NCBI GenBank assembly: GCA_937879825.1
Contig: CALFMQ010000252.1
Coordinates: forward strand, 1 to 35,595
From: an uncultured Phycisphaerales bacterium
GTDB lineage: Bacteria; Planctomycetota; Phycisphaerae; Phycisphaerales; UBA1924
Direction of reading: 5' to 3'
Length of the DNA: 35,595 bases
The number at the start of each line of letters is the position of its first letter. Within the stretch, counting starts at the first letter, position 1. The translations under genes and the position numbers were made by a program. The notes below the pieces were generated by a model that was not told the origin of the DNA, made no database searches, and worked only from the letters and a program-made list of their open reading frames with translations. Of this stretch, positions 1,624-34,979 are shown in pieces.

Positions 1624-1641
1624 CGGGAGGATGCGGCGCGC

Positions 1642-3265: not shown

Positions 3266-3384
3266 GGGCGCGGTTTTATCGGGCGCGGGGTGCGGGATCG
3301 GCACGGGGACCCGGGGGGTTGGGGCCGCTACACTATCCGCCCCATTCACCCGCAACGAGACACCCGGTACCCGAGGAGAGAACG

Positions 3385-4554: not shown

Positions 4555-4563
4555 TCTGTGTCG

Positions 4564-5736: not shown

Positions 5737-5880
5737 GTTCCATCGAATGGGGCGATCCGGTTGGGGCGTCGAATCGTAGAAGGCGGGTCGAAGAGTTCGC
5801 CTGGGATTGCCGATAAGCAGGAGTCGGAGGGGTCGGGCCGCGTCAGGAGTTGGCGTGTTCTCGGACCTGGCACGGGTGTC

Positions 5881-7437: not shown

Positions 7438-7449
7438 GGCGGGTTGGCG

Positions 7450-9806: not shown

Positions 9807-9850
9807 TTCTCGCCTTTGGGGGCCATTCTAGGGTGTCCTACGTGCGGCGC

Positions 9851-10912
9851 TCAGCGGCGCTGCTCGGGCATGACGAGGTCCACAACGACGGGCGCATGGT
9901 CGGAGCCGGTATCGGCCTCGACGACCTGCCACGAGGCGACCTTGATGCCGGGCGTGACGAAGACATCGTCGATGGCGAAACGCTTCCAACGCGGGTTGTC
10001 GGCGGGCCAGGTGCCGACGACTCCCAAGAGCGGCTTGCATCGGAGCAGGCCCAGTGCGCGGCGGACCCGGCCGGTGCGATACATGGTGGGCGAGGCGTTG
10101 AGATCGGCGGTGACGATCATGGGGAGGCGGCGCGAGAGGTAGTAGTCGCGGAGGATCTGGATGTTGGTCTCGAGCAGATCGTTGCCGAACTCCCAGCGCT
10201 TGGCGGTGCGCGGTGATGAGGGGATGAGCATGGCGTGGAGGAAGTCGCCCCCCATCGCCTCGGGGGCGTGGACCGTGACCACTCGGCGGTAGTTGTAGAA
10301 GTCCCACCAGAGGTCCCACTTGGAGTCGCGGGACTCATCGACGGTGATCGGGAACCTGCTCAGGACGACGATGTTCCACTCCTTGCCATCCTCGGGCACG
10401 ACGCGGTGCGGGTAGCGCTCGTCGTCCCACGACGCCTGGCGGAGTTCGTGGAGCGTCGACCACGAGGCCTCGAGGATGCACACGAGGTCGGCGTCTGACT
10501 GCCTGATGGCGGCGACGACCTTGTCGCCGTGGGTGTTGATCCCGAGCGAGTTGAACGTCATCACGCGGAGTGTTCGGCCTTCGATCGGCGCGGAGCGCAC
10601 GGCCCGGCCCGAAGCCATCCAGAGTAAGTGCGCTAATGCGATCAGCGCGATCAGTAGCGCAGTGCGACGAGACCGGAGTGCGAGGGCGAAAATGGCTGCG
10701 AGAGCGCAACCGACAACCATCGGGCCGGCGAAGCCGGACAGGAGATCGAGGCGCCATGAGAGCGCGAGGCCCGCGCCGAGGAAACGGAGGAGCAGGGTTG
10801 TGAACGAAGTGATGAGGAGGATCAGCGCGAGAGCGAGGCGGACCCGATGCCATCGCCTGCGCCTGCGCCTGCGCGGATCGGTGGCGGTTGTGACCGCTGC
10901 GCGCCCGGTCAT
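9851..10912 (-). CDS. Membrane-anchored endonuclease/exonuclease/phosphatase (EEP) family protein
   Basis: Three to four N-terminal TM helices, then LRVMTFNSLG..., ADLVCILE and a C-terminal GSDHAPVVVDL (EEP catalytic His motif). The ATG at 10912 forms an ATGA overlap with the epimerase stop. Confidence 0.75.
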   Translation of the reverse strand: MTGRAAVTTATDPRRRRRRRWHRVRLALALILLITSFTTLLLRFLGAGLALSWRLDLLSGFAGPMVVGCALAAIFALALRSRRTALLIALIALAHLLWMASGRAVRSAPIEGRTLRVMTFNSLGINTHGDKVVAAIRQSDADLVCILEASWSTLHELRQASWDDERYPHRVVPEDGKEWNIVVLSRFPITVDESRDSKWDLWWDFYNYRRVVTVHAPEAMGGDFLHAMLIPSSPRTAKRWEFGNDLLETNIQILRDYYLSRRLPMIVTADLNASPTMYRTGRVRRALGLLRCKPLLGVVGTWPADNPRWKRFAIDDVFVTPGIKVASWQVVEADTGSDHAPVVVDLVMPEQRR

Positions 10913-11895
10913 CCGGCGAGATGCTCGCGGGCCCATTTCCATTGCCGGCGGACGCCTTCCTCGAATGACGTTGTCGGTTTGTACCCGAGTTCGGCCGTGG
11001 AACGGGTCAGGTCGGCGTAGGTTCGTGAGACATCGCCGGCCTGCATCTCGCGTTGCTCAACTCTTGGCTCTTTGCCCAGCACGCGCCCGATGGTGGCGAT
11101 CATCTCCTTGAGGTTGACGGGGTCGTTGCCGCCCAAGTTCCAGATGCGGTAGCCGTGGTCCGGGACTCTCTCGTAGGAGGCGACGACTCCGGCGACGATA
11201 TCGTCGATGTATGTGTAGTCGCGGCTGGTGGTGCCGTCGCCGAACATGGGGATGGTTTGATCGCGTCGGATGATTTCGATGAACTTGGCGATTGCGAGGT
11301 CGGGGCGTTGGCGCGGGCCGAAGACGGTGAAGAAGCGGAGACAGGCGATCTCCATGTCGTAGAGATGGTGGAAGACATGGCCCATGAGTTCGCAGGCGCG
11401 CTTGCTTGCGGCGTAGGGCGAGATGGGGCTGGAGACATCGTCGGTCTCCGCGAAGGGGACCTTCTCGTTGTTGCCGTAGACGGAACTGGAGGATGCCATG
11501 ATGAAGCGCTTGACATTGGCGCGGCGTGCGGCCTCCATAAGGATGGTGGTGCCTTCGAGATTGACCTGCGCGTAGCGCTTGGGTTGCTCGAGACTGGGTC
11601 GGACGCCCGCGCGGGCTGCGAGATGGATGACGCCTGTGAGTTGTTCGTCGGAGAAGAGTTGATTCATCGCGGTTGCGTCGCAGATGTCGGCTTCGACGAA
11701 TGCGAACCGATCGTCGGCGCCGGGGGTCTTGCGGATCTCGGCGAGGGTTCGTTCCTTGAACGGGCGGGGGTAGTAGGCGTCGAAATCGTCGAGCCCGATG
11801 ACGGTGGTGCCGCGGGCGAGGAGGGCCTGGCAGGTGTGCGAGGCGATAAAGCCGGCGGCTCCGGTGACAAGGACTCTGTGTCTGGACCAATCCAC
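10909..11895 (-). CDS. NAD-dependent sugar-nucleotide epimerase (SDR), UDP-glucuronate 4-epimerase-like
   Basis: Rossmann motif VLVTGAAGFIASH, catalytic YAASK, and LRFFTVFGPRQRPDLA resembling GlcA-epimerase clade proteins. GTG at 11895 has AGGGAGG 7-8 nt upstream. The longer track ORF (to 12072) is rejected. Confidence 0.85.
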   Translation of the reverse strand: MDWSRHRVLVTGAAGFIASHTCQALLARGTTVIGLDDFDAYYPRPFKERTLAEIRKTPGADDRFAFVEADICDATAMNQLFSDEQLTGVIHLAARAGVRPSLEQPKRYAQVNLEGTTILMEAARRANVKRFIMASSSSVYGNNEKVPFAETDDVSSPISPYAASKRACELMGHVFHHLYDMEIACLRFFTVFGPRQRPDLAIAKFIEIIRRDQTIPMFGDGTTSRDYTYIDDIVAGVVASYERVPDHGYRIWNLGGNDPVNLKEMIATIGRVLGKEPRVEQREMQAGDVSRTYADLTRSTAELGYKPTTSFEEGVRRQWKWAREHLAG

Positions 11896-12063
11896 CCGTG
11901 TCGCCTCCCTCGCGGTGTCGTGTACCCGTACCCAACAAACGAACCGGTGCGTGGGCGGGTTCGCCCTTCGGTGCGGCCGGCGGATCGAAGGTCGCGGATT
12001 GTAATGGGGTCGTTGCGCGAGGCCTGGAACGGGCGAGCGGTGCCCATTCCCCATCAGGAGTGA

Positions 12064-12111
12064 CGCTGACAAAAAGCAAACCAGGGCGCCGTCTATTCAA
12101 CAGCGCCCCGG
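12064..12111 (-). terminator. Intrinsic terminator closing the sigma-to-SLC13 transcription unit
   Basis: The minus strand reads CCGGGGCGC-(13 nt loop)-GCGCCCTGG. This is a 9-bp stem including one G-U pair, followed by TTTGCTTTTTG. Confidence 0.65.
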
Positions 12112-12259
12112 TGGAGGAGAGAGAGATCTATTGGATATTACTCCTTATCGGCGGATTCCGTTCCGATATCTTGAGCGAAATCAAGCGGAAAGTGAACAAT
12201 AACCGACCACTCGCAATGCAAAGACCGGTGCGCGACCGAGCCCCCCATGCGCGGGTTGG

Positions 12260-12295
12260 GTCCGCGCAAGTTATGTCGTACAAACTTGCGCGGAC
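12260..12295 (-). repeat. Perfect 13-bp inverted repeat (stem-loop) in the 3' UTR of the SLC13 gene
   Basis: GTCCGCGCAAGTT (12260-12272) and AACTTGCGCGGAC (12283-12295) with a 10-nt loop, about 26 nt after the stop codon. No U-tract follows on either strand. Confidence 0.6.
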
Positions 12296-12321
12296 GCGCA
12301 AAAATGCCCTTTGTAGGCGGC

Positions 12322-14163
12322 TTATATCCACTTGAGAGCGGTTGCTATCACGGCTGTGACGCCGCACACAAGGGTGAGCGGCCCGCCAAATCGGGTGTAG
12401 TCGAGCCAGCGGTACCCTCCGGGGCCCATGACCGTGAGGTTGGTTTGATAGCCGATTGGGGTCGAGAACTCGGCAGAGGCTCCGATCGCGATAACCACCG
12501 CTAGCGGCGTGAAGTCGGTGAAGCCGACGGATGCTGCGGTCGAGACCGCGATCGGGAACACCAGCGCAGCGGCGGCGGTATTGGAGAGCAGCATGGTGAA
12601 GGCGACAGTCATTGCATAAACCACGGCGAGCACGGCGACCTTGCCCATGGACCCGGCGACAGAGACCACGAACTGCGCGATCTCCGGCGCCAGCCCGGTG
12701 GTGAGCATGGCTCGGCCGATCGCGAATGCGCACCCGACAACGATGAGGACGGTCCAGTCCATGCTTGCGCGGACCTGTGGGCCGGTGCAGCATCGTGTGA
12801 TGATCATGGCGCAAGCGGCGGACATGGCGGCGGGCAGCAGGTCCATCAAGCCAGAAGCCACAGCGACGACCATGAGCAGGAGTATGGCGATGGCGATCCA
12901 GGCGCGATCGTGGCGGGGCACGGCGGCACCTTCGAGGGCGCTGACGAGGTGAAAATCACTCGAGTCGCGGTGACGGGATGCGAACCGCTCATTTGTTTCA
13001 AGAAGGAGTGTGTCACCCGGGCGGAGTTCGATATCGCCGAGTCTGCCGATGATCGCGTGGCCCTGACGGTGAACAGCGACAACGACTGCGCCGTACCGCG
13101 ACCGGATCTCTGCATCGCGGATGGTGCGTCCGATGAGTGGTGATGCCCCGGATATGACTGCCTCAACGAGTCGGAGATTGGCTCGGGAGGCCCCCGGACC
13201 GACGCCGTCCGCCACGGGCGTGAGCCCCTTCATGCGTGCCAGGTCAACGACAGACGAGAGCACCCCGACAAAAACGAGAACGTCGCCGGCGAGAATCTGC
13301 TCATTCGGGCTCGGCGCAAGGATGGTTCTGTCCTCGCGGTCGATTCGTGAGAGAAAGACGCCCGTGAGGTGGCGCAATCCCGCGGCATCAATGGTCTTCC
13401 CCACGACGGGCGACGCTGACTCGACACGGAGCGCTGTCATGTATTGTCGCGAGCGTTCGAGGTCGCCGGATTGGTCCGTGCGCTGAGGCAGCAGCGTGCG
13501 CCCGAAGATCATCATGTATGCGAGACCCGCGATAGCAACGGGAATACCGACCCATGCGAGCGTGAACATGCCCAATGGTTCGATGAAATGGCCGTTGGAT
13601 CCGCGTGCCAAGGCGTCGTTGTGTTGTTGAATCAGTCCGGCGACCGCGAGGTTTGTGCTGGTCCCGATCAGTGTGCAGAGCCCGCCGAGAATCGCTGCGA
13701 AACTCAGCGGCATGAAAAGATATGAAGGCGAGATGCGCATTCGTTTCGAGAGCGAACTGACGACCGGCATGAAACTGGCGACCAATGTTGTGTTGTTTGT
13801 GAATGCGGAGATCGCTGCGACCGGGATGGAGAGTCGGGCCTGGGCGCTTGTGATCGACCTGGGCGTTCCCAGTATTCGATCCGCCAGGAACGATACGGCC
13901 CCGGTTTCGCGCATCCCGGTTGAGATCACATAGAGCATCGCGATCGAGGCGAGCGCCTCATTGGCGAAGCCGGCGAGGGTCTCGGCGGGTGTAAGAATCC
14001 CCAACACTGTCAGGGCAGTGAGAACGCCGAGCATGACGAGATCAATCCCGATGCGACCCCACGCCAGGACTCCGAACATGATGATCAAGAGCACACTCAG
14101 CGCCCACGGATGCCACCACGCGGTTGCACCGACCAAGAGAACGGCGTGATCGATGTTGCACAT
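12322..14163 (-). CDS. SLC13/DASS-family anion permease with two central TrkA-C (RCK-C) domains; likely sulfate uptake from context
   Basis: 613 aa with polytopic N- and C-terminal halves. Two RCK-C-like inserts (PVVGKTIDAAGLRHLTGVFLSRIDRED..., PLIGRTIRDAEIRSRYGAVVVAVHRQG...). The substrate is inferred only from the adjacency to cysQ and cysC. Confidence 0.75.
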   Translation of the reverse strand: MCNIDHAVLLVGATAWWHPWALSVLLIIMFGVLAWGRIGIDLVMLGVLTALTVLGILTPAETLAGFANEALASIAMLYVISTGMRETGAVSFLADRILGTPRSITSAQARLSIPVAAISAFTNNTTLVASFMPVVSSLSKRMRISPSYLFMPLSFAAILGGLCTLIGTSTNLAVAGLIQQHNDALARGSNGHFIEPLGMFTLAWVGIPVAIAGLAYMMIFGRTLLPQRTDQSGDLERSRQYMTALRVESASPVVGKTIDAAGLRHLTGVFLSRIDREDRTILAPSPNEQILAGDVLVFVGVLSSVVDLARMKGLTPVADGVGPGASRANLRLVEAVISGASPLIGRTIRDAEIRSRYGAVVVAVHRQGHAIIGRLGDIELRPGDTLLLETNERFASRHRDSSDFHLVSALEGAAVPRHDRAWIAIAILLLMVVAVASGLMDLLPAAMSAACAMIITRCCTGPQVRASMDWTVLIVVGCAFAIGRAMLTTGLAPEIAQFVVSVAGSMGKVAVLAVVYAMTVAFTMLLSNTAAAALVFPIAVSTAASVGFTDFTPLAVVIAIGASAEFSTPIGYQTNLTVMGPGGYRWLDYTRFGGPLTLVCGVTAVIATALKWI

Positions 14164-14243
14164 AGTCGGTAGCGACGGGCGCGCGTCTTGTAGGTCGCGC
14201 GGCAGATGCGGGGGCGAGCCGCCATTTTACCTTGGCGATCGGC

Positions 14244-15269
14244 TCAGACCAGTCCGAGGCGCTTGATGGCACCGATGGCCTTGCCGTGGAGGATTGTGGG
14301 CGCGACGACGATTCCCCGGTTCTTCTCGAGACCGATTCCATGGGAGAAATCGAGGGATTTGCCCGAGGCATCGGTGACGGCGCACCCGGCCTCGATGGCT
14401 ACGAGGGAGCCGGCGGCGTGGTCCCAGATTCGTTCCACGTAGCCCTTCTTTGTTGGGAGGCGGAGGTAAAGATCGGCCTGACCTCGGGCGACGACCGCGT
14501 ACTTGGCCTGGCTGTCGAGGCGTGCCGGCTCGCCCGGTTCGCCGAGTTGCTCGAGGACGCGCTCGGAGTCGTTGTGGCTCGTGTGTGCGGCTTCGACGGA
14601 CTCGCACATGCGGACGGGTTCGTCTTCTGAAACCTCGAGCCGCTTGAGTTTGGAACCGGCGGTCTTGAAGTCGTCGGCGCGCGACTCCCACACGCCGTCG
14701 CCCGCGATGGCGGAATACATGGTGCCGTGGGCTTCGAGTTCGTCGAACCCGCGGTTGAAATCGGCGGAGAGATTCGGGCATCCGAGGACACCGATGATGG
14801 GCGAGCCGTTCTCGATCCATGCGAGGGAGACGGCGTACTGCTGGCCTCGGAGGAAGCCCTTGGTGCCGTCGATCGGGTCGAGCGTCCAGAAGGCATGGAG
14901 ATGATCGCGCTTGGGATCGGCATTGCCGAGGTCGATCATGTCGAGGACTTCGTCGGGCGCCGCGTTGTGCCAGACCGTTCGGACGGCGGAGACGACGGCG
15001 TCGAGGAGCGCGGTGTCGCCCGAGCCGACTCGGGCGCGGAGTTCGTTGGCGTCTTCTTCGGCGACGAGTTTGATCGAGCCGAGTTGCTCTGCGAGGGCGC
15101 GGGCGATGACGGCCTGGCTCGCGAAGTCCGCGACGGTGACGGGAGAGCGGTCGTCCTTGAGGGTCTTCTGAACGGTGGCGAGATCGTGTTGCACCTTGCG
15201 GCAGACATGGCACGCCTCGGCGACCGCGAAGCGTGCGGCGTTGAGCATTCTGGCTTCACTGGACATCAC
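14244..15269 (-). CDS. cysQ: 3'(2'),5'-bisphosphate nucleotidase (CysQ/HAL2-type, inositol monophosphatase superfamily)
   Basis: Motifs WTLDPIDGTKGF and WDHAAG, with a long HAL2-like architecture (341 aa). GGAGGAGG lies 5 nt upstream of the ATG. Confidence 0.85.
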   Translation of the reverse strand: MMSSEARMLNAARFAVAEACHVCRKVQHDLATVQKTLKDDRSPVTVADFASQAVIARALAEQLGSIKLVAEEDANELRARVGSGDTALLDAVVSAVRTVWHNAAPDEVLDMIDLGNADPKRDHLHAFWTLDPIDGTKGFLRGQQYAVSLAWIENGSPIIGVLGCPNLSADFNRGFDELEAHGTMYSAIAGDGVWESRADDFKTAGSKLKRLEVSEDEPVRMCESVEAAHTSHNDSERVLEQLGEPGEPARLDSQAKYAVVARGQADLYLRLPTKKGYVERIWDHAAGSLVAIEAGCAVTDASGKSLDFSHGIGLEKNRGIVVAPTILHGKAIGAIKRLGLV

Positions 15270-15344
15270 GACCTCCTCCGATGCTGCGCTCTTGCAGGTC
15301 GGTTGAGTGTAGTGGCTCGGATGGAGGCGGGAGTCGGCGCTCGA

Positions 15345-15959
15345 TTACGCCTTCTTGATGACGCCCTTGTCTTCGAGGAACGCGACGCAGCGGCGGACGG
15401 CCTCGGCGACATCGTAGTCCGCGGGCTTGAGCACCAGTTCGGGCTTGCCGGGCGCTTCGTAGGGATCGTCGATGCCCGTGAAGCCCTTGATCTGCCCGGC
15501 GCGGGCTTTCTTGTAGAGGCCCTTGGGGTCGCGCTGCTCGCACACCTCGATGGGCGTATCGACGAAGATCTCATAGAACGCGAGTTTGCCCGCGTCGTGG
15601 GTGGCTCGGGCCTTGTCGCGGTCGGCGCGATAGGGCGAGATGAAGGACGTGAGGGTGACGCATCCGGCGTCGGCGAAGAGTTTGGCGACTTCGCCGATGC
15701 GGCGGATGTTCTCGGCGCGGTCGTCGGCGGAGAACCCCAGGTTGTTGTTGAGGCCGTGGCGGACGTTGTCGCCGTCGAGGCGGTAGCAGTTGACCTTGCG
15801 GTTCACGAGCGCCTGCTCGAGGGCGCAGGCGATGGTGGACTTGCCCGAGGCGCTGAGGCCGGTGAACCAGAGCGTGCAGCCCTTGCACCCGAGGGCGCCC
15901 CAGCGCTCGTCGCGGGTGATATCGCCGTCGTGCCAGTGGATGTTGGTTGCCTTGCTCAT
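15345..15959 (-). CDS. cysC: Adenylylsulfate (APS) kinase
   Basis: P-loop GLSASGKST, then [12 protein letters not shown] and SFISPYR. The start is at [10 protein letters not shown] (ATG 15959); the track extension to 16082 is rejected. Confidence 0.92.
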
Positions 15960-16092
15960 CGGTGTGGGCCTTTCTCTCGCTCGCTCCGTGGGGATCCCGC
16001 GGGCGCCGGACACATGGCGCGGGGATCGTGGATGGTGGGTCGGGGGGGAGGAAAGGTAGGCGGGTGCCGCGAACGGAGTCAAACCGCCCGGT

Positions 16093-18576
16093 TTACCAGG
16101 TGCGGAGTGACTGGAGCGCGTCGACGATGCTTTCGGTATCGACCACTGAACGGGTGATCAGGCGGCGGTCGACCTCGTCCTGCGACTCGGGGTCGAGGTC
16201 GATCCAGAGAATCCCCGCGATGGCGGGGTCGACCTTTTCGGCGAGCCAATCGGCGAGTTCGGCCCGGGCGTCGGTGTCGGCGGCGTGGCGGAGGCCGATG
16301 ATGGTCTTGGCCCGGGCGACGAGGTCTGCGTCTTCGGTGACGCCCATGTTCTCATCGGCGAGCGCGTGCATGACGAAGTTGAGGTAGGCGTCGGCGTCGT
16401 GGCGGGCTGCGAGATCGTTGATGACCAGAAGCAGCCGGGATGGTTCGTCGAAGCGGGCGCGGACCTCGAAGGGTGTGGTGTTATTGAGTTCGATCTGATC
16501 GTGGGTGTAGGCGATATCCAGGATGTCGTGATCGGCGGAGGTGCGCGTGTAACGTTCGGGGAAGGGGAAGTCATTGATGTCGGAGAACATCGTGGCGACG
16601 CCGGCCGCGGTGTCGTAATGGAGCGCGGGACCGGCAACCACGTCGGACATCTCGTGCGTTCCGGCGATGCGGGAGTCGTGCTTCATCGCGGGGATGAGCA
16701 GGCCGCCGCCGATACCGACGACGCACATGAGCATGAGCACAACCGCGACAACAACGCCCGCGTTGGGCGCGTTGTTGAACTGTCCGCCTCGCGGTGTGCG
16801 GCCCCGGCGCCGGTCCTGCGCGCGGCGCTGGGCGGCCTGGACGCGGGCGCGCGCAGACTTGAGTTGCGCACCGGCGTTGGGGCGGTTGTGGCGCGGCGTG
16901 ACGGGCGTCCGGCGGGCGGTTGCATCGGGTTTCGGGGTGTCGCGTCTTTCGGGGCGCTCATAAGACGCTCCGATGACCAGCGGACCGATACGAGCCCCGT
17001 ACGTGCGGGGTTTACCCGGCGCATCCTGCGGCGATGGGGACCGTTGCTCCGACTCGCTCTTGACGGAGTATCGCCCAGTCCACCAGTCTGCGAGGGCGAT
17101 GACGGGCTTGGTGCGGGGCTTGGGCGAGTCGTGCGCTGCGGGCGTCTCTGGGGCCGGCGCAGCGGGAGCTACGGGCGCGGCGGCCTGCGCGACGCGGCCC
17201 ATGTGTTCGGCGAACTCGTCTGCGACGGGCGCGGGGACGGTGAACTCGGAGCCGCCCTTGACCGAGGGGAGATCGGCGGGCTTGAGGGCGAACGCGCTGG
17301 GCGCGTGCTGGATGGCGCGGAGATCGGCGAGCATCTCGGCGGCGCTCTTGTAGCGCGTGTTGATGTCGGTCATTGCGCGGCGGACGACCCAGCGGAGCGC
17401 TTCGGGGCAGCGCTTGGAGAGTTGCGAGAGCCCGCCGTGGGCGGGGAATGAGTTCTCGATGACGGAATAGAGCACGGCGCCGGCGCCGTAAATATCGAAC
17501 TTGACGCCGTCGACCTCGTGGACTTTGACGCCGCGGAGCGCGAGCCGGACCATTTCGGGATCGCGGAAGTATTCGGTGCCGTGGGTCGTGAGGGTCATCG
17601 CGGAGCGGAGGGGCGTGATGAGGCCGAAGTCCACGAGTTCGGCGCGACCGTCGTGGACGATGATGTTGTCGGGTTTGACATCCTTGTGCCAGAGACCGCC
17701 GCGGTGGTAGACATCGAGGGTGGAGACGAGGTCGGCGATGTATCCGATCGCCTCTCGGAGGTGACGGTCGTCGAGGCCGGCGGTCTCGGCGTCGGAGTGC
17801 ATGCGGCGGGTGACGAGCGTGAGGGACTCGCCGGGCACATAGGGCATGACGTAAAAGAATCGTTCGTTGGTGAGTTCGTGATCGAGGACGAGCCCGAGTT
17901 TGCGCGCGGCTTCGAGCGCGCGGCTCTCGCGGACGATCTGCGGGACGGTCGATCCCTCGCGGACGGAGAAGGACTTGATGACGACCTGATCGATCTGGCG
18001 GTTCGATGAGCGTTCGAGTGCGGCGCGCTTGATGTCTGTGGGTTCGGCGACGTAGAGGCGGCCGCCCGAGCCGCCGCCGGGGAGCGAGCCGACGATCGTG
18101 TAGCCGTCGAACTGGCCGGTCTTCCTGGAGGGGCGGTCGGCGCCGGGGGCCTGCGCGACGGCGTCGGGCACGCGGTGCTCGATCTCGTCCATCATCGGGC
18201 CGAGCAGGAGGAAGCGCGCGGGGTGTCCGATGCAGACGCGGTAGAGGGCTTTGCCCGAGGCGCCCCACGCCGAGACGAGCTCGCGCCCGAAGTGCGTGGC
18301 GCTGGACCAGCGCCCGATGAGCGTGTTGGCGACGGCGGCGGGGATGAAGAAGAGGCCGGCGATGAAGAGGCCGACCATGCGGAGGGAGTCGGTGAGCATG
18401 CCCGCGATGAAGCGGTAGAAGTGCCTGATGACCGCGCCGATCCCCCGGAAGACCCACCCGATGCCGACGGCGGTGCCCTTCATCGCGGGCACGACGAGAT
18501 AGATGATCGCCAGGATGCCCACGACAATGGCGAGGACGGAGGCGAGGATAATGAGAAGGATTGCGGGTGCGGCCAT
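16093..18576 (-). CDS. Membrane Ser/Thr protein kinase (Hanks type, non-RD) with N-terminal TM helices, a late TM helix and a C-terminal domain of unknown function
   Basis: Gly-rich loop [19 protein letters not shown] Lys, catalytic loop [12 protein letters not shown], and [14 protein letters not shown] lies 9 nt upstream of the ATG. Confidence 0.88.
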
Positions 18577-18608
18577 GGGGGTCTACCTCCACCGTGAGGG
18601 GGTGGGCC

Positions 18609-19373
18609 TCAGCCCATGAGGCCCTCCTGCTCTGCCCGACGCGCCTGTTCCTCGCGGTGATACAGCTCCGCGATGGCTTCGTCGAACATGGCGTCGTCTG
18701 CCTTGTTCGGACTTAGCGCCAGTCCGTTTCGCTCTGCCTCGGCTTGTTCGTCGGTGGTGAAGGAATAGGTGGCCACCACCTCGGCCAGACGGCGGCGGAG
18801 AAGATCGCGGACCTTGGTCAGGCGTCGGGAGACGGTCGGCTCGGAAGTGCCCACGGACTCGGCGACATCCTTGCCGGACATGCCGTCGAACACGCGCATC
18901 CGATAAATTGTGAACTCGGTGAACTCGCACTCTCGCTCGACCATTCGGACGGCGGCGTAGACCTTGGCGCGGAAGACCTCGGCCTCGTACTTGCCGTCGG
19001 GCGTGGTGCCCTCGCCGGCGCCCATCCAGGTCTCGTCGAACTCTGAGCCGCGTTTGCCGCCGCCTCGTTTGAGGGCCATGCGCTTGTCGATCTCGTCGCC
19101 CAGCGTGTGCTTGGCGATGGCGAGGAGCCATGTGGAGAAGCGTGCGCCGCGGGCGGGGTCGTAGCGTTCAATCGAGTCCGAGAGTGCTGCGAGGGTTTCC
19201 TGCGAGAGGTCGCGGACGGTTTCGGGTCCGATTCGCCCTTTGCCCCAGCGGGCGAGTTGGGCGCGGAGGACCGGGCCGAACACTTCCCAGAGTTCGAACC
19301 ATGCGGCGGGATCGCGCGCCCGCAGGCGGTTGACGAACGAGGTGGTCATCGAGTTCAGCATGGTCGGCCCCAC
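18609..19373 (-). CDS. ECF-type RNA polymerase sigma-70 factor (kinase-associated class)
   Basis: Sigma-2 region DLSQETLAAL...FSTWLLAIAKH and sigma-4 HTH GMSGKDVAESVGTSEPTVSRRLTKVRDLLRRRL. There is a ~55-aa C-terminal extension. The start is ambiguous (GTG 19373, ATG 19361 or ATG 19349). Confidence 0.85.
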   Translation of the reverse strand: MGPTMLNSMTTSFVNRLRARDPAAWFELWEVFGPVLRAQLARWGKGRIGPETVRDLSQETLAALSDSIERYDPARGARFSTWLLAIAKHTLGDEIDKRMALKRGGGKRGSEFDETWMGAGEGTTPDGKYEAEVFRAKVYAAVRMVERECEFTEFTIYRMRVFDGMSGKDVAESVGTSEPTVSRRLTKVRDLLRRRLAEVVATYSFTTDEQAEAERNGLALSPNKADDAMFDEAIAELYHREEQARRAEQEGLMG

Positions 19374-27889: not shown

Positions 27890-27905
27890 TGGATAGACTG
27901 TGCCC

Positions 27906-28961
27906 ATGACGCCCCCCGCCTCGCCATCGAAGGAGAGTCTGTCCGAACGCGCCGGGCGCGCAGCGCGGGCGATCGATGAGGGTGGTGTTGTTATCGTGCC
28001 GACCGAGACAGTGCGGGCGTTGGCGTGCGATGCGTCCAGCCGCGATGCGCTGAGTCTCATGTGGGACATCCGCGGGTCTGATCCGGCGCCGCTTGCGTGG
28101 CATGTCCGGGACGCGGAACAGGCGTTTCGTTTGCTCCCGACGCTGCATCCTCGGCATGCGAGATTGGTTGAACGGCTCGCGCCCGGACCGGTGTTGTTCG
28201 CGATGGAGTGCGAGCCGGAAGTCCTCGAGCGCGTGCGTGCGTCATTGCACGTGCGGGCGGGCGTGATCGAGGACGGTCGATTCATGTTTGTGCGCGTGCC
28301 GTCGCACCCGGCCGCGCGGGCGCTGCTCGGCGCTACAGAGAAGCCCGTTGTGATGGCGTCGATCCCGGCGGGCGTTCACGCGGAAGCGCGGGTGGATGTT
28401 GTGCTGGATGACGCGCCCGCACCATCGGGCAAGCCCTCGACGCTGATCCGCATGTTGGGCGGCGGATCGTGGGATGTGGCGCGTGAGGGTGTGATCGAAG
28501 AGCGTTATATTCGCAAGCTCATGACGCGGACCATTCTGTTTGTATGCACGGGGAACACCTGCAGGAGCCCGATGGCTGAGGGGATCGCGCGAGCGATTCT
28601 GGCGCAGGAGCCACCGGGCGTGGACACGGTTGTGCGGTCCGCCGGTGTCTCCGCGTTCGGAGGATCGGCCGCGACCCCTGAGGCGATCGTGGCGGCGCGG
28701 GCGTTCGGGGCGGATCTGTCGAACCACCATGCGACGCCGCTGACGCGCGAGGTTCTCGCGGGCGCTGATGTGGTGTACGCGATGACGCGCTCGCACGCCG
28801 AGATGGCGCGCGCGATCGATCCGAGCGTTGACGTGCGGCTGCTCGATCCGTCGGGGCGGGACATCCCCGATCCGATCGGATCGCCGCAGTCGGCGTACGA
28901 CGAGGCGGCGCGAGTCATCGAGCGGCATGTGCGGGCGCGGCTCGCGGAGCTGGACAAGTAG
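27906..28961 (+). CDS. Fusion protein: YrdC/Sua5 (TsaC)-like domain plus low-molecular-weight phosphatase of the YwlE (phosphoarginine phosphatase) type
   Basis: N-terminal half: VPTETVRALACDA, APGPVLF and VRVPSHPAARALL (YrdC fold). C-terminal half: ILFVCTGNTCRSPMAEG (CX5R P-loop), VRSAGV and DIPDPIG. The start is ATG 27906 or GTG 27900. Confidence 0.8.
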   Translation: MTPPASPSKESLSERAGRAARAIDEGGVVIVPTETVRALACDASSRDALSLMWDIRGSDPAPLAWHVRDAEQAFRLLPTLHPRHARLVERLAPGPVLFAMECEPEVLERVRASLHVRAGVIEDGRFMFVRVPSHPAARALLGATEKPVVMASIPAGVHAEARVDVVLDDAPAPSGKPSTLIRMLGGGSWDVAREGVIEERYIRKLMTRTILFVCTGNTCRSPMAEGIARAILAQEPPGVDTVVRSAGVSAFGGSAATPEAIVAARAFGADLSNHHATPLTREVLAGADVVYAMTRSHAEMARAIDPSVDVRLLDPSGRDIPDPIGSPQSAYDEAARVIERHVRARLAELDK

Positions 28962-28968
28962 CGATCGA

Positions 28969-31314
28969 CTATTGCGCGACGCCGACGGTCTTGGCGACTC
29001 TGTCGAGACGTGCTGCGCAATCGGGGTGTTGATCCAATCCTGGTTCGGTGCGGAGGCGTCGGATGAGGCGGGCGATGGTGTCGGTGCGCGAGCCGTCGGC
29101 GTTCTGGCGGACCAGAATCTCTGCGAGCCGTGCCTGGGCGTGCCAGTAGTCGCGAGAAGTCTTATCGCTCTCGGTCAGTTGCGCCATATTGCGGAACGCG
29201 GCGAACGCAGCGGCATCGTCGCCGGTGAGGAGAATCGACTCTGCGAGCCCTCGTGCGAGCGCGGGTGAGCGTCCGGACTGTTCGATCGCGCGATTGAACC
29301 AGATCGCGGCGAGTCTTCCCTCACCCGCCAGCAGGAGCCCCCACGCGGCGTGTGCCGCATTAGGAGGGTCGCGCTCGGTGATGAGCCGCCATGCGCTGTC
29401 CGGCCATTGCTTGCGGATGGGATCGGCGCGGACATCCTCGATGAATCGCTCGATGTCCGACATAGTTACGGCCCATGCGAGTCGATCGACTCTCGCCAGA
29501 AGCAGTCGTAAGGACTCATGATCGAGCGCTATGGCGATGGGACGTGCTTCATCGGTGCGGTTGAGTCGGATGAGCGCGATGCACGCCGCGGGCCCCGCGT
29601 CGGCGAGGCGATCGGGCATGAGTGCTTCGGCTTCGGCCCACGCTGCGGCGTCGCGGGTCAGACCGACGAGCGCACGGACGCGCACGCGGACAGCTTCATC
29701 GGTGGTGAGTGTGCGGGTGCTGGTGAGGGCTCTGTCGAAGTAATCACGTCCGACACCGCCGGCGTCCTCGATCCGCTCGCCCGCCCAGACCAGCACCGCG
29801 CCCGACGCGGCGTCTTGGGCGGACCGATGATCCAGCACGCGCACGGCTTCATCGACCAGCCGCGGGAACTCCACAGCGGACTCGTCGGCAGCCTGCCGGA
29901 TGAGCGCCGATGCCAGCTGGGAACGCCACGCGTCGGCGCCGGAATGGCGAGGAGAGGTCTTGATCGATTCCGAGAGCACGCGCACCACGATCGCATCGGT
30001 TTCGGGAGCATGCGGAACGCTCGCGGCGAGTGATGCGCCCCACGCGAGGATGCCCGGCGCGCGGATATCGTCCGCATGCTGTTGGGCGAACAACACGGCT
30101 CGATCTGCAGCATCGAGGCGGGCAAGCGGGTCGGAGGACTCGGCCAGTGCGCGCATGAGCGCGACATCTGCGCTGGATTGGATGTGCGCATTCAATGCTT
30201 CGCCGGCAATGATGCGCGACAGGCGGTCGGTATCGGCGATCGCCTCCGGCGAGGTGATCGCGTGGGCGATGAACCCGAAATCGCTTGCGGCGGCCAAACG
30301 GGAGTCGAGGGTGATGGCGCTGGCGGCGGCAGAGATCGCGAATGAAGCATCCTGGGGCGTTTCAGCGGAGCGCGCGAGTTGTTCAATAGGAACGAGCGCC
30401 TGGGCGAGTACCGCCTGGCGTGTCGCGGGATCGGAGGACGCGCGGGCCTCATTGATCGCCAGCAGCGCGTGCATCGACGCCGCGATGGTCGAGGCGTACC
30501 AGTCGCGTTTGGCGTTGATCACGAAGGGATCGGAGTCGAGCGCGGCCCGGATGATGCTGCGTGCGGCGGCGGGTGCTCCTGAAGCCGCCTTGACCTGCGC
30601 CCCGATCAGGATGCGCTCGGCGCGGAAAGAAGGGCGATCGTCCGCCGGCGCAATGAGTCGGGCTGCTTGATCGGCCGACTCCTCAACCTGTCGGGCGGCC
30701 CCGTGGTTGCCCGACATGGAGAGAGCGAGGGCCGCGAGCGTGGCGCGCTGCGTCTCGTACCACGGACCGGCGTCGGTGGGACGCAGGAGGAGTTCGCCCG
30801 CGGCTTCCGTGAGTGCGCGCTTCTTGGACTCCTCGCTTCCGCACGAGGCGTGCAGCAGCAGCGCCCTGGATGCATCGAGCGGGAGAACGACCAGAGCGCG
30901 GTCGGCGAGCGCTTCGGTTTGCGCATCGTCGGAAGCGGCCTTGGCTGCTTCGACTCGGCGCTCGGCATCGGCCGCGATCGCGATGGTCTGTTGGGCGATG
31001 TATCGCGCTAGTTGAGCGTCGCTATCCGATGGGATGGCGAACATGACGCGCCATTCGACTCCGGCGCGCCTGGCGGCGCCCCCCCACTGCTCGGCGAGCG
31101 CGAGCGCTTCGGCCGGTGTTGCGTTGGTTGGGATGCGTGTCGGAAGATCGGAGAGCCATGACAGGCCTTGCATGTCCGAGGGTTCGGGCTGTCGAAGGCC
31201 TGTTAGGTGTTGCCCCAGTCGGACGGCGGCATCGGCGACAGGGCCCGCGTGTGCAGCACATGCGAGGAACACAGCCGCGAACGAAGCGAGCCGGGCGGCA
31301 CAGCGCATCCTCAT
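28969..31314 (-). CDS. Large secreted Ala-rich alpha-helical repeat (TPR-like) protein
   Basis: Signal peptide MRMRCAARLASFAAVFLACAAHA, then ~750 aa of helical-repeat-like sequence. The ATG at 31314 forms an ATGA overlap with the exbD stop. The track extension to 31524 is rejected. Confidence 0.65.
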   Translation of the reverse strand: MRMRCAARLASFAAVFLACAAHAGPVADAAVRLGQHLTGLRQPEPSDMQGLSWLSDLPTRIPTNATPAEALALAEQWGGAARRAGVEWRVMFAIPSDSDAQLARYIAQQTIAIAADAERRVEAAKAASDDAQTEALADRALVVLPLDASRALLLHASCGSEESKKRALTEAAGELLLRPTDAGPWYETQRATLAALALSMSGNHGAARQVEESADQAARLIAPADDRPSFRAERILIGAQVKAASGAPAAARSIIRAALDSDPFVINAKRDWYASTIAASMHALLAINEARASSDPATRQAVLAQALVPIEQLARSAETPQDASFAISAAASAITLDSRLAAASDFGFIAHAITSPEAIADTDRLSRIIAGEALNAHIQSSADVALMRALAESSDPLARLDAADRAVLFAQQHADDIRAPGILAWGASLAASVPHAPETDAIVVRVLSESIKTSPRHSGADAWRSQLASALIRQAADESAVEFPRLVDEAVRVLDHRSAQDAASGAVLVWAGERIEDAGGVGRDYFDRALTSTRTLTTDEAVRVRVRALVGLTRDAAAWAEAEALMPDRLADAGPAACIALIRLNRTDEARPIAIALDHESLRLLLARVDRLAWAVTMSDIERFIEDVRADPIRKQWPDSAWRLITERDPPNAAHAAWGLLLAGEGRLAAIWFNRAIEQSGRSPALARGLAESILLTGDDAAAFAAFRNMAQLTESDKTSRDYWHAQARLAEILVRQNADGSRTDTIARLIRRLRTEPGLDQHPDCAARLDRVAKTVGVAQ

Positions 31315-31826
31315 TCTCCTTCCCCTCTCAGGCGGACTTGCTCGTAGCGCGCCAGGCGGAGTGCGTTGACGGTCGCGACGGCGTGTTCCCATCGGCAGCC
31401 GGGGGCGGGGCGGATGTCGAAACGCTGGCTCGGCGCGAGCACGCCTCCGCGTTGTGCGAAGGCGGCGTCGGTGAGGGAAGCGAATCCCGAGCCGGTGCCG
31501 ATGATCGGTGAGTCGGCGCGCCACAGTGCATCGGCGCGGCCCTGACCGAGCGACTCGACGACGATGGTGATCGGTGCTTCGGGGAGGGCGAAGGGATCGG
31601 CGGCTTCGGCCCCCCGCCCGGCGATGTTCAGCGGCATCGATCCCTCCGGTGCGCGGAACTCGGTGATGAGCATGAAATACATGAGCAGGAGGAACACAAC
31701 ATCGATCATCGGCGCAACATTGAGCCCCATCATCGGGAGCGCAGGCCGTCGGGCGCGCTTGCGGCGCTCGTCGTAATCGATCAACGCGCCCGCGTCGCGG
31801 GCTGGTTGGTGGTTGCCTCCGCTCAT
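31311..31826 (-). CDS. exbD: ExbD/TolR-family biopolymer transport protein
   Basis: TM segment NVAPMIDVVFLLLMYFML contains the conserved Asp. ATGA overlap with the upstream gene. Confidence 0.85.
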   Translation of the reverse strand: MSGGNHQPARDAGALIDYDERRKRARRPALPMMGLNVAPMIDVVFLLLMYFMLITEFRAPEGSMPLNIAGRGAEAADPFALPEAPITIVVESLGQGRADALWRADSPIIGTGSGFASLTDAAFAQRGGVLAPSQRFDIRPAPGCRWEHAVATVNALRLARYEQVRLRGEGE

Positions 31827-32296
31827 GGGGTGCTTTCCTCGTCCGTGGTGCCCGGGCTCATGGTGACGAGCCCGACGGTCGACGCGCCGCCCTTGCGGGC
31901 GGCTTCGAGGGCGGGGCGGACTCGGGCGTAGTCCTCGAGACGGTCGGCGCGGACATGGACCTCGGCGCCCGGTTCGCGCGAGATCGACTCCGCGACGCGG
32001 CGCGCCAGCGCCGACAGGCCCTCGTCGGTGCGCTCGAATGACTCATCGTTCAGGCGGTATGCGGGCGAGGACTCCTCTGTCGCCCCAGGGATGACATGGA
32101 TGATGATGGGTGCTGCCTTGTTCTTATCGTTGTTGTTCTGGCGCGCTTCGATCATGGGTGGCGTGAGTTCCACGGCACGGTGGCGGGTGATCTGCGCAAC
32201 GACCATGAAGAAGATGATCAACTGAAAGACGATGTCGATCATCGGGGTGAGATTCGACCGGAGGTCGGCGGGGAGTCTGTGCGCGTGGCGGCTCAT
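31823..32296 (-). CDS. exbD: ExbD/TolR-family biopolymer transport protein
   Basis: TM segment NLTPMIDIVFQLIIFFMV contains the conserved Asp. ATGA overlap with the exbB stop. Confidence 0.88.
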   Translation of the reverse strand: MSRHAHRLPADLRSNLTPMIDIVFQLIIFFMVVAQITRHRAVELTPPMIEARQNNNDKNKAAPIIIHVIPGATEESSPAYRLNDESFERTDEGLSALARRVAESISREPGAEVHVRADRLEDYARVRPALEAARKGGASTVGLVTMSPGTTDEESTP

Positions 32297-33066
32297 CGTG
32301 AGTCACCCGGTCCGCGGAGCAGGCCGATGACCTCTTCGACAGCGCGAGTCGCTTCGGAGGTGAGGCCGTCGATCTTGTTGCGGAGTAGGGCGTACCCCGA
32401 GAGGGCCGGGATCGCGACGATGAGGCCCCAGAATGTTGTGACGAGCGCGGTTCCGATGCCGTTGGCCAGCGCGACAGGATCCGGGGTGCCGCCGCCCAGA
32501 ACGATCTGTCGGAAGGCGAGGATCATGCCGTAGACGGTGCCGAAGAGACCGATCATGGGGGCCACATTGCCCACGACATTGAGGGGTTCGATGGCGCGGA
32601 GCCGGCGGTAAGTGAGCGTTTCGGATGCGGTCTCGGCGGCGCGGATCATTGCGCCGTGCCCGTGGGGGTGCTGATCGACGGCGGACTTGAGGACCGACTC
32701 GAAGAAGGTCGATCTGTTGGCGGACATGGCGGCGATCTCGTTCGGGAGCCCCGAGGCGGCTCGTTCGCGGGCGCGCCGCTCGATCTCCGGCGCGATGATG
32801 TCGCGCTTGCGGTTCTCCTGCAGGCGCATCACGAGGAACGCGATGCAGAAGCCCGAGAGGATGAGCAGCGCCCAGATGATGAAGGAACCGATCCACTCGA
32901 CCTGTCGGGTGATGGGGTGTCGCTGCACGAAGAACGCCTCGAGCATTCCGACCCTGACACTGCCGGCGCCAGCGGGGGCGTCCTGCGCGGCGAGCGCGAT
33001 GGCGGCGGGCGCGAGCATGGCGGTGATGCTCATGGCGGTGAGTTGCGTAGCGAGTTTGAGTTTCAC
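32293..33066 (-). CDS. exbB: MotA/TolQ/ExbB proton-channel protein
   Basis: C-terminal core VAPMIGLFGTVYGMILAF...GIGTALVTTFWGLIVAIPAL. The start is taken at GTG 33066 (GTGA overlap with the upstream stop); ATG 33033 is the alternative. Confidence 0.88.
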   Translation of the reverse strand: MKLKLATQLTAMSITAMLAPAAIALAAQDAPAGAGSVRVGMLEAFFVQRHPITRQVEWIGSFIIWALLILSGFCIAFLVMRLQENRKRDIIAPEIERRARERAASGLPNEIAAMSANRSTFFESVLKSAVDQHPHGHGAMIRAAETASETLTYRRLRAIEPLNVVGNVAPMIGLFGTVYGMILAFRQIVLGGGTPDPVALANGIGTALVTTFWGLIVAIPALSGYALLRNKIDGLTSEATRAVEEVIGLLRGPGDSR

Positions 33067-34022
33067 AGGCCGAGGTCCTCCCGGCTCCGGTGGATGAAGC
33101 CGTTGTTGCCGCCGAATCGTGCGCCGATCTCGCGCACGATTCCGGATTTGTCGTCGTCCAGGAACAGGATGGTCTTGATGGTGACCCGGCGCACACCGTT
33201 GCGCGCCAGTGGATCGAGCGCTTCGAGGCGTGCGAAGAACGACTCGCGTTGCTCGGGCGTCCACGCGTCGGCGCCGGTGATGTCGGTGGTGAGGAGGAAG
33301 ATGGCGTCGGGTCGGAGCGAGAGCGCGACCTCGAGCGCTTCGATCGGGTTGGAGCGCCCGCTGGGCCTGACGGAGGATGCCCACCTGATGGCGGACTCGA
33401 TGAACGAGCGGCGGGCGGGCACCATGCGCGTGACGGGGACAGCGGTCTGCGCGAAATCCGGGTGCGTGAAGGAGACATAGCCGTCATTCTGGAAGAAGAC
33501 GATCTGGAAACTCTGAATGGCTTCGAGTTTCCGGAGCGACTTTGAGAGTTCGTCAGCGACGATCGGCATCGCGCTGATCATGGAGCCGGAGCCGTCGACG
33601 ACATAGACGATGTCACGCGCGTTGCCGGCGCCGATCCCGGCGAAGCGCACCTCGGGGGGCGCGACGGTCTGGATGGGTGGCGGGGGTGCGGCGTCGAATG
33701 TGGGCATCGGCGCGAGCGCTTCGGGAATCGGCGCGCTTCGGGCTTCGATCGGCAACGTTGGAGGCGGCGTCTGGATGGCGATCGTCGGCGGGGGTGCTTG
33801 CGGCGCTGGATCGGTTGGTTGATCTATAACCGGTTTGGGAGGGGCGAGGCCCGGATCGTCGAAACGGACGGTGACGATGGGGGCGTCGTCATCGCGGGGG
33901 ATGACGACCTGCACGACCATCAGCATGACCGCGATCACGGCGGCGTGCGCGCCGATGGAGATGGCCCAGGCGAGGGCTGTGCGGCGCGCGCCGGTTGTGG
34001 TGCGATCCGTCCGTGCTCGCAT
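33063..34022 (-). CDS. TonB/TolA-like N-terminal anchor (SxxxH TM helix plus Pro-rich spacer) fused to a von Willebrand factor A domain
   Basis: TM helix ALAWAISIGAHAAVIAVMLMVV carries Ser-x3-His. Pro-rich spacer PPKPVIDQPTDPAPQAPPPTIAIQTPPPTLPIE...APPPPIQTVAPP. The VWA MIDAS motif is VYVVDGSGSM (DxSxS), with LLTTD following. No TonB C-terminal-like sequence was recognised. Confidence 0.75.
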   Translation of the reverse strand: MRARTDRTTTGARRTALAWAISIGAHAAVIAVMLMVVQVVIPRDDDAPIVTVRFDDPGLAPPKPVIDQPTDPAPQAPPPTIAIQTPPPTLPIEARSAPIPEALAPMPTFDAAPPPPIQTVAPPEVRFAGIGAGNARDIVYVVDGSGSMISAMPIVADELSKSLRKLEAIQSFQIVFFQNDGYVSFTHPDFAQTAVPVTRMVPARRSFIESAIRWASSVRPSGRSNPIEALEVALSLRPDAIFLLTTDITGADAWTPEQRESFFARLEALDPLARNGVRRVTIKTILFLDDDKSGIVREIGARFGGNNGFIHRSREDLGL

Positions 34023-34061
34023 GGCGCGATTGTACGCGCTGGGGTCGGCGGTGCCGGCGCG

Positions 34062-34979
34062 TCAGTCGAGTTCGATATCGCTCGTGTGATCGGGTCGGCG
34101 CGGGCGCGGAGGGGGAGCGGGGGGTGTTTCGGGACGCTGCTTGTCGTAGGCGGGCTTGCGCGGCGCGGGCTTGGGCGCGTTTCTGGAGCCGAACACCCAC
34201 GCGTCGAGGCTGAGTTTGCCAGCGCCCATGAACAGGATCGCGCCGGCCATCGCGAGCAGGCCGAACTGCCACATCATGGTGTTCCACATCTGAATCCAGT
34301 CGGGCGAGGCCATCTCGGGCTTGGGGAGGAAGCCCAGGAAGTTGTCTCCGGTCCGCGAGCGGATGGCGGGCCCGATCTGCGTGAGCCAGAGGGCGGTGCC
34401 CATGGTGCCTATGACTCCCAGAGCCGCGAGGCGTGAGAACAACCCGAAGAGAAGGGCGGCCCCGGCGGCGAGTTCGGTGGAGACGGCGGCCCACGCGAGC
34501 GACTTGGCCCAAGCATCCGAACCGAGCGCCTTGGGTACCAAGCGGGATCGTTGATCGTTGCCATCGGCGCTCATTTTGAGCATGCCGGCGATGGACATGA
34601 CGCGGCGGGCCCGAACGGTGAGGGGCTGTTCGATGACGGTGGGCTCGGCGACGGAGGATGCACCCGTGGTGAGTTCTGCTTCGGCGCCGGGCTCGTCGTC
34701 GATGGACTCGGCGCTGGAGTCGGGGTCTGGTTCATCGCCAGCAGCTGCATCGGCGCTGGACTCGGGGGTGGCTGGCGCTTCGGACTCGGGCGCGGCGGCT
34801 GGGGGAGGCCACTGGCCCTGAAGGATGGTTCCCTCGTTCATGGAAGCGAGCGTGGCGGCCATGGGGCCCGAGTAGTCCTGGGGCATGAGCTTGCCGGCGC
34901 CGGCCCAGATGAACGTTGCCCCCAGAGCCAGACGCAGGAAGAGAGGCGCGAAGGTCTGGGGCTTGGCATGATTGGACAT
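34062..34979 (-). CDS. DoxX-family membrane protein with a large acidic loop insertion
   Basis: FAPLFLRLALGATFIWAGAGKL is a DoxX-type first helix, and later helices are present. A ~110-aa Pro/Glu/Asp/Ser/Ala-rich insert follows TM1. AAGGAG lies 9 nt upstream of ATG 34979. Confidence 0.7.
   Translation of the reverse strand: MSNHAKPQTFAPLFLRLALGATFIWAGAGKLMPQDYSGPMAATLASMNEGTILQGQWPPPAAAPESEAPATPESSADAAAGDEPDPDSSAESIDDEPGAEAELTTGASSVAEPTVIEQPLTVRARRVMSIAGMLKMSADGNDQRSRLVPKALGSDAWAKSLAWAAVSTELAAGAALLFGLFSRLAALGVIGTMGTALWLTQIGPAIRSRTGDNFLGFLPKPEMASPDWIQMWNTMMWQFGLLAMAGAILFMGAGKLSLDAWVFGSRNAPKPAPRKPAYDKQRPETPPAPPPRPRRPDHTSDIELD

Follow-up and report, generated by a model that had tools for sequence, protein, structure and literature searches.

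In a stretch of 35,595 nucleotides from an uncultured Phycisphaerales bacterium (GenBank assembly GCA_937879825.1, contig CALFMQ010000252.1; the whole stretch is hereafter called the window), a minus-strand operon of six genes joins an ExbB/TolQ-like and two ExbD/TolR-like stator subunits to a 319-aa protein that has the transmembrane (TM) signature and Pro-rich arm of TonB and TolA and, in place of the TonB C-terminal domain, a predicted von Willebrand factor A (vWA) head. We consider it probable that this locus is the Phycisphaerae member of the vWA-headed TonB/TolA-like force transducers, and we propose that it encodes a motor-driven machine built from the vWA protein and a tetratricopeptide repeat (TPR)-like protein, with force, we infer, delivered through the vWA head. 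Such transducers, bearing an SHLS motif, have been described beside tolQ, two tolR genes and a TPR gene in bacteria of the Planctomycetes-Verrucomicrobia-Chlamydiae (PVC) superphylum (Williams-Jones et al. 2025, Mol Biol Evol, PMC12204202); the locus is a genuine example of this already predicted class, from a new and well-populated Phycisphaerae subfamily, and not a new concept.

The six open reading frames (ORFs) between positions 28969 and 34979 run in the order DoxX-vWA-ExbB-ExbD1-ExbD2-TPR-like. The DoxX gene is separated from the vWA gene by 39 nt, a GTGA overlap at 33063-33066 holds the stop of the vWA gene and the GTG start of ExbB, and ATGA overlaps at 32293, 31823 and 31311 join the ExbB, ExbD1, ExbD2 and TPR-like genes. 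An initial annotation, made from the sequence alone, had read these genes as a coupled operon, and all six ORFs and all four overlaps were recovered as it had placed them. The features are as follows.

34062..34979, minus strand: DoxX-family inner-membrane protein, 305 aa from its ATG (Pfam DoxX, 7e-12; extension of the ORF to 35021 is possible)
33063..34022, minus strand: predicted vWA-headed TonB/TolA-like protein, 319 aa (three-part AlphaFold2 (AF2) model and Foldseek matches)
33903..33974, minus strand: TM helix of the 319-aa protein, residues ~17-40, with Ser22-x3-His26 (AISIGAHAAV; S22 in 78/81 and H26 in 80/81 family sequences)
33852..33884, minus strand: candidate 'motor box', residues 47-57, APIVTVRFDDP (conserved beta-prone segment just past the TM helix)
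33648..33902, minus strand: Pro-rich disordered linker, residues 41-125 (26/85 Pro; predicted local distance difference test score (pLDDT) ~50-60)
33066..33647, minus strand: predicted vWA domain, residues 126-319, with metal ion-dependent adhesion site (MIDAS)-like residues D143, S145, S147, S224 and D247 (Foldseek and ITIH4 profile match)
32293..33066, minus strand: ExbB/TolQ-like stator subunit, 257 aa, GTG start (PF01618, MotA_ExbB, 1.6e-25)
31823..32296, minus strand: ExbD/TolR-like paralog 1 (ExbD1), 157 aa, TM Asp21 (PF02472, 1.8e-16)
31311..31826, minus strand: ExbD/TolR-like paralog 2 (ExbD2), 171 aa, TM Asp42 (PF02472, 1.2e-8)
28969..31314, minus strand: secreted TPR-like helical-repeat protein ('BIG'), 781 aa (signal peptide; AF2 and Foldseek)

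The transducer-like protein and its predicted head

A scan of one genome per GTDB species recovered 225 relatives of the 319-aa protein, and an exhaustive profile search at E<=1e-30 yielded 774 representative clusters of its vWA family. The best 80 of the 225 relatives all derive from metagenome-assembled genomes of Phycisphaerae/Planctomycetota, a few doubtful labels excepted; Phycisphaeraceae bacterium HK-STAS-PLAN-8 is 96% identical to the window. Residue conservation was counted over 81 sequences of 31-96% identity. The AF2 model, built on 23 homologs (pLDDT 78.6), divides the protein into a helix (residues 9-40), a low-confidence region (41-125) and an alpha/beta domain (126-319). Based on the Arg-rich N-terminus, with five Lys or Arg in 16 residues, we predict an N-in topology that places the vWA domain in the periplasm. 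The single TM helix with a Ser-x3-His signature claimed in the initial annotation is upheld by the near-invariance of Ser22 and His26, and its long Pro-rich spacer is likewise recovered as a linker of low model confidence, 31% Pro, whose length and sequence vary among homologs. Just past the helix a V-x-V-x-[FW] pattern is conserved at residues 50-54, with an aromatic residue at position 54 in 72 of the 81 sequences (F 52, W 20), and Pro62 is kept in 61. The monomer AF2 model has no strand there; by analogy with TonB and TolA, we regard residues 47-57 as a candidate 'motor box' (PMC12204202).

When the modelled C-terminal half was compared with the PDB using Foldseek, it retrieved vWA domains at E-values of 2e-9 to 1e-6 and target-normalised TM-scores of 0.6-0.69, among them those of ITIH4, ITIH1, CMG2/ANTXR2, TEM8, the integrin alpha-M I-domain and VWF A3, and the family profile matches the ITIH4 vWA domain by sequence as well (E 1.4e-7). 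Direct vWA matches in Pfam and NCBIfam are sub-threshold (Pfam VWA_3, 0.046; VWA_2, 0.14), and the fold assignment therefore rests on the AF2 model, Foldseek and the ITIH4 profile match. TonB_C gives no match at E<=1 in Pfam, a TolA C-terminal domain is absent from the Pfam and NCBIfam matches, and the sole NCBIfam match to TonB covers the N-terminal TM/Pro-rich region (E 0.13). The profile search that the initial annotation had called for thus gave the predicted absence of TonB_C, with the predicted vWA matches falling short of threshold, while its placement of a vWA domain where TonB has its C-terminal domain is supported by the structural matches. Going by the model, we conclude that the protein ends in a vWA fold bearing a MIDAS-like site and not in TonB_C.

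Within this predicted domain VVDGSGSM spans residues 141-148 and the LLTTD segment ends at Asp247. The MIDAS-like residues lie at the canonical places, namely where beta1 ends, in the loop leading into a helix and after beta4, with Ser224 replacing Thr; in the alignment with ITIH4, DxSGSM falls onto the MIDAS DxSxS and G-R-S-N onto the G-G-T-N that supplies the MIDAS Thr. Asp143 and Ser145 are invariant (81/81 each) and Ser224 is present in 80/81. By its residues the site appears complete in the window and four-fifths conserved in the family, and metal binding is putative. With the direct Pfam matches below threshold and the similarity to TonB not significant, it might be argued that a secreted or anchored vWA protein has come to lie beside a motor by chance, with coincidental polar residues in its TM helix, and resembles a transducer superficially at best. 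This we find barely credible: the strong structural vWA match contradicts it, and both the TM motif and the synteny are conserved over 81 species across the full range of identities.

Motor genes, DoxX and the TPR-like protein

Judged by its conserved residues, the operon would encode a complete proton stator, of the 5:2 type by virtue of its class, consisting of an ExbB/TolQ-like subunit and two different ExbD/TolR-like subunits with the catalytic Thr and Asp kept. The closest solved match of ExbB is TolQ (1.2e-11), and its pore-lining Thr residues are invariant among orthologs (T177 in 59/59, T211 in 58/58), as is the TM Asp of each ExbD (D21 in 54/54 for ExbD1, D42 in 54/54 for ExbD2), in agreement with the initial claim that both paralogs keep the essential Asp. 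A Kiritimatiellota metagenome contig carrying a relative of the published seed (L091:1-4519) has the gene order TPR-like, ExbB, ExbD, ExbD, vWA, vWA. Its ExbB aligns with that of the window over the full length at 28% identity (E 1e-21), the ExbD1 profile prefers its first ExbD (86 vs 58 bits) and the ExbD2 profile its second (80 vs 40 bits). This one-to-one correspondence, together with the ExbB match, indicates that the motor cassette is orthologous to that of the archetype, and the orthology of the ExbD pair that its duplication is older than the split between Phycisphaerae and Kiritimatiellota. Like 'long' ExbB forms, both the window ExbB and that of the Kiritimatiellota contig (L091:721-1488) have a signal-peptide-like hydrophobic segment before the first TM region.

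For the analysis of synteny all ORFs of 80 species loci were translated and classified by jackhmmer searches seeded from the window proteins. ExbB lies directly downstream of the vWA gene in 55 of the 72 evaluable species loci, ExbB-ExbD-ExbD remain adjacent to it in 76% of species loci, at identities as low as ~32%, and the same six-gene order recurs in independent metagenome contigs; the arrangement is conserved and not a product of chance, as the synteny check suggested in the initial annotation was meant to establish. DoxX is directly upstream of the vWA gene in 61 of 67 loci. No neighbour of the vWA transducer, the motor included, is as constant as this conserved membrane companion. Its orthologs conserve the TM segments and a terminal GAGxLSLD motif; the window DoxX also has a non-conserved, lineage-specific acidic/Pro-rich loop (~residues 35-150) and a Pro-rich tail.

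It is common for one Ton motor to power more than one TonB paralog, and ExbB-ExbD-ExbD could be a general Ton motor for a canonical TonB encoded elsewhere, with the vWA protein as an extra client or a competitor or regulator. We hold this to be very unlikely, as the four-base overlaps run all the way from the vWA gene to the TPR-like gene, the whole cassette is conserved in 55 species loci, the same order of one TolQ-type and two distinct TolR-type genes stands beside vWA transducers in another phylum, and neither a TonB_C nor a receptor gene is found among the scanned ORFs of the 35.6-kb window.

The 781-aa protein encoded by the last gene of the operon has a signal peptide, as do its orthologs, and matches no Pfam family. 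Its AF2 model (pLDDT 67.7) is all-alpha, with ~40 helices of 12-20 residues, and its best Foldseek matches in the PDB are the TPR superhelices of Ski3, TTC7B, Ctr9 and subunits of the APC/C; given the moderate quality of the model we claim only a TPR-like solenoid. The protein is Ala-rich and fast-evolving, which explains why word-indexed homolog searches returned just 3 and 6 matches, and its orthologs were recovered through synteny and jackhmmer; most loci have a large ORF after ExbD2 or immediately behind the vWA gene. A lipoprotein reading was rejected, as the Cys in the signal peptide lies outside a lipobox context and is missing in most orthologs.

Among the 150 best representatives of the vWA family, 14 are 850-1040 aa long, and in 13 of these the TPR-like ortholog profile matches the C-terminal 550-600 aa in colinear fashion (E 5e-61 to 3.5e-13; examples are P0057, P0094, P0135, P0141 and the locus L079:7932-10652). 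In a direct BLASTP comparison the 781-aa protein and P0057 are 37% identical (E 1e-6) across the conserved C-terminal module, and none of 154 shuffled or reversed controls matched at E<=10, which excludes a compositional artefact. On these alignments, at least 13 representative clusters thus appear to contain proteins in which TM helix, linker and vWA domain are naturally fused to the TPR-like protein; no other evidence at hand speaks as strongly for the vWA head and its TPR-like neighbour acting as a single unit. We accordingly regard the TPR-like protein as probably the bound partner of the vWA head. The initial annotation had named the helical-repeat protein and DoxX as possible partners or targets, and both suggestions gain ground, the former through these fusions and the latter through its constancy as a neighbour.

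Several observations weigh against the reading of the locus as a motor-driven vWA transducer. In 17 of the 72 loci DoxX and the TPR-like gene are kept with no ExbBD within 8 kb, so the link to the motor is not obligatory in cis, and the motor is no better conserved than the adjacency of DoxX or the TPR-like partner. Conservation of the SHLS motif is limited to its S and H, with A or G in place of the L and T, A or V in place of the distal S. The putative metal site is also uneven: Ser147 is present in 69 of the 81 sequences and replaced in 12 (mostly by Pro, 6, or Ala, 5), and the fifth MIDAS residue, at position 247, is Asp in 19 and Asn in 31, such that of the MIDAS proposed in the initial annotation the DxSxS part is borne out and the contribution of the LLTTD Asp is not a family-wide trait. 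Both tandem vWA transducers of the Kiritimatiellota contig are devoid of DxSxS, and metal binding may therefore be non-essential to the class. To these may be added the sub-threshold Pfam scores, and the fact that the class itself is a purely computational prediction from genomes, made in 2025 (PMC12204202).

Most of the motor-less loci have an ORF of 750-1195 aa directly after the vWA gene, and they supply 10 of the 12 replacements of Ser147, in these loci by Pro or Ala (L015, L050, L057, L064, L065, L070, L075, L077, L078 and L087). From these substitutions, the integrity of the MIDAS seems to track the presence of the motor genes, the site degenerating where they are missing. One long-read contig (L004, contig_166950_np1212) has DoxX and no ExbBD; its topoisomerase I gene is split into several ORFs, and its gene calls, including a 280-aa vWA homolog without a TM helix, are unreliable.

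The motor-less loci, in which DoxX-vWA is followed by a large helical protein or a fusion, and the excess of DoxX adjacency (61/67) over ExbB adjacency (55/72) would fit an alternative in which the DoxX, vWA and TPR-like proteins make up an envelope module, comparable to the Bacteroides aerotolerance (Bat) type, that works independently of a motor and into whose operon ExbB-ExbD-ExbD was inserted in one large sub-lineage without direct mechanical coupling. We regard this as unlikely. It leaves unexplained why the motor-less loci retain Ser-x3-His (Ser in 15/16, His in 16/16), the Pfam-scanned ORFs of the window include none of the MoxR or DUF58 genes typical of Bat operons, and Phycisphaerae and Kiritimatiellota clusters, each with vWA transducers, have orthologous ExbD pairs. 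Moreover, tonB is unlinked from exbBD in E. coli, and a transducer encoded apart from its motor has precedent. A motor-driven transducer is hence the reading we prefer, and the counter-evidence that the initial annotation had named was not encountered: TonB_C and TolA C-terminal domains are absent from the matches of the head, the Ser-x3-His helix is conserved among homologs and so is the adjacency to ExbBD.

Relation to published vWA transducers and other envelope systems

The published class was reported from Proteobacteria, Planctomycetes, Verrucomicrobia, Bacteroidetes and Rhodothermaeota, with Tichowtungia aerotolerans as the seed, and its members combine an SHLS-bearing TM helix, a disordered/Pro-rich linker that contains a motor box, and a vWA domain at the C-terminus; AlphaFold3 models place the TM His at the site used by TonB and TolA, and the function is given as unknown, with no phenotypes (PMC12204202). 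Nothing is said there of DoxX, MIDAS, metal, vWA-TPR fusions or Phycisphaerae, and our literature searches found no other paper treating such proteins. The statement in the initial annotation that this arrangement had not been characterised therefore holds for experiment, but the idea itself had been published in 2025.

Using the Tichowtungia seed sequences from the supplement of that paper, an hhalign comparison with the Phycisphaerae family gave a remote match over 114 columns of the vWA core (87.8% probability, E 3.3e-6, ~20% identity), and the family HMM (hidden Markov model) matched the Tichowtungia transducer in three weak colinear pieces (22-25 bits) that include the SIGIH helix; an SIGxH core in the TM helix is common to the window protein and the Tichowtungia transducers. 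The locus shares with the class the S-x3-H helix, a disordered/Pro-rich linker whose conserved post-TM segment is a candidate motor box, the predicted vWA head and the TolQ, two TolR and TPR neighbours. It differs from the archetype in having a single transducer in the order DoxX-vWA-Q-R-R-TPR, as against two in the order TPR-Q-R-R-vWA-vWA, and in a head with DxSxS and Ser224 retained; the archetypal head has ILDANK and is larger by ~150 aa. Comparison of the 781-aa protein profile with a 223-aa C-terminal TPR-like fragment from the Kiritimatiellota contig gave no match, and homology between these two TPR-like proteins is thus not shown. The same paper describes a second family, TPH-vWA or TolQ-only, in which a vWA protein has an Asp-bearing ExbD-like trans-pore helix and tolR genes are lacking (PMC12204202); we rejected membership in it, as the TM helix of the window protein has Ser and His without an Asp, and the operon includes two ExbD genes.

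With ExbB-ExbD-TonB the locus has in common the Thr and Asp of a 5:2-type stator, a bitopic S-x3-H transducer with N-in topology and a Pro-rich periplasmic spacer, but it has two different ExbD proteins and a predicted vWA/MIDAS head without TonB_C; among the Pfam-scanned ORFs of the window there is neither a TonB_C nor a TonB-dependent receptor gene. The TolQ-TolR-TolA/TolB/Pal/CpoB system resembles it in that TolQ is the nearest solved relative of its ExbB, in a TPR-type periplasmic protein and in a housekeeping neighbourhood, the functional analogy being speculative; here, however, the TPR-like protein has 781 aa and matches no Pfam family, and a TolA C-terminal domain, TolB and Pal are absent from the operon and the scanned window ORFs. 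Bat-type loci combine membrane-anchored periplasmic vWA and TPR proteins and contain vWA-TPR fusions, as does the family of the window protein. We know of no Bat proteins with a TonB-like S-x3-H helix or ExbBD neighbours, and a Bat-type operon was rejected since no MoxR ATPase or DUF58 gene occurs among the Pfam-scanned window ORFs. In the Agl-Glt gliding machinery of Myxococcus a TolQR-type motor is functionally linked to the vWA protein CglB, but CglB is an outer-membrane lipoprotein adhesin and not an inner-membrane TonB-like arm (PMC9946355), and the window has no Glt genes.

Proposed mechanism, genomic surroundings and significance

Under the motor-driven reading, the TM helix of the 319-aa protein would dock outside the ExbB pentamer via Ser22 and His26, with the post-TM segment contacting the periplasmic domains of an ExbD heterodimer, and proton flow would turn or retract the Pro-rich arm. 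The vWA head, probably via its metal site, would hold the 781-aa TPR-like protein in the periplasm; a conserved GLAE...GDDA segment of the latter, near residues 688-700, is a candidate source of an acidic side chain that would complete the MIDAS. As the gene for the TPR-like protein is translationally coupled and co-conserved with the transducer, and in some lineages fused to it, the motor would pull on a vWA-TPR scaffold and not on a TonB-dependent receptor. Regarding the cellular output, we suggest with low confidence a Tol-like task in the maintenance of the envelope or outer membrane, based on the wide distribution of the system in Phycisphaerae, its housekeeping neighbourhood and the reported absence of Pal in Planctomycetes (PMC12204202 supplement). 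In a bolder form of this proposal, which we deem speculative and distinctly unlikely as a whole, DoxX-vWA-TPR with ExbB-ExbD1-ExbD2 would be the planctomycete counterpart of Tol-Pal, a third and MIDAS-dependent route by which the proton motive force serves to tether or constrict the outer membrane in a phylum that has neither Pal nor FtsZ-based division, with the TPR-like protein as the force-bearing scaffold and DoxX as an obligatory membrane subunit.

Convergent with the last gene of the operon, a plus-strand gene (27900-28961) codes for a fusion of a Sua5/YciO/YrdC-like domain and a low-molecular-weight phosphatase (CTGNTCRS motif), and the same neighbour is present in a second locus (L001). 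Elsewhere in the window, positions 29-16082 hold a polysaccharide biosynthesis cluster with sulfate activation, comprising two GT2 and one GT4 glycosyltransferase genes, a Wzy-like polymerase, a flippase-like protein, an epimerase/dehydratase, ATP sulfurylase (3262-4554), a CitMHS+TrkA_C transporter (12322-14163) and adenosine 5'-phosphosulfate (APS) kinase (15345-16082), which suggests a sulfated surface polysaccharide. On the minus strand at 16093-19373 a gene for an extracytoplasmic function (ECF)-type sigma factor (18609-19373) adjoins one for an 827-aa Ser/Thr protein kinase (16093-18576). All 2-kb bins of the window show a positive GC skew (0.10-0.22) whatever the gene orientation, and GC content is 62-68%.

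Relative to the published prediction (PMC12204202), the locus adds three elements: the TPR-like protein as the likely physical partner, from gene fusions; DoxX as an unexpected constant companion; and the MIDAS site, near-complete in the Phycisphaerae subfamily, whose integrity seems to follow the motor genes. Its value lies in guiding experiments on an existing hypothesis. The Ton and Tol systems are the only understood routes by which energy passes from the inner membrane to the outer envelope in diderm bacteria, and a third class, with an adhesion-type and possibly metal-dependent head, would widen this picture.

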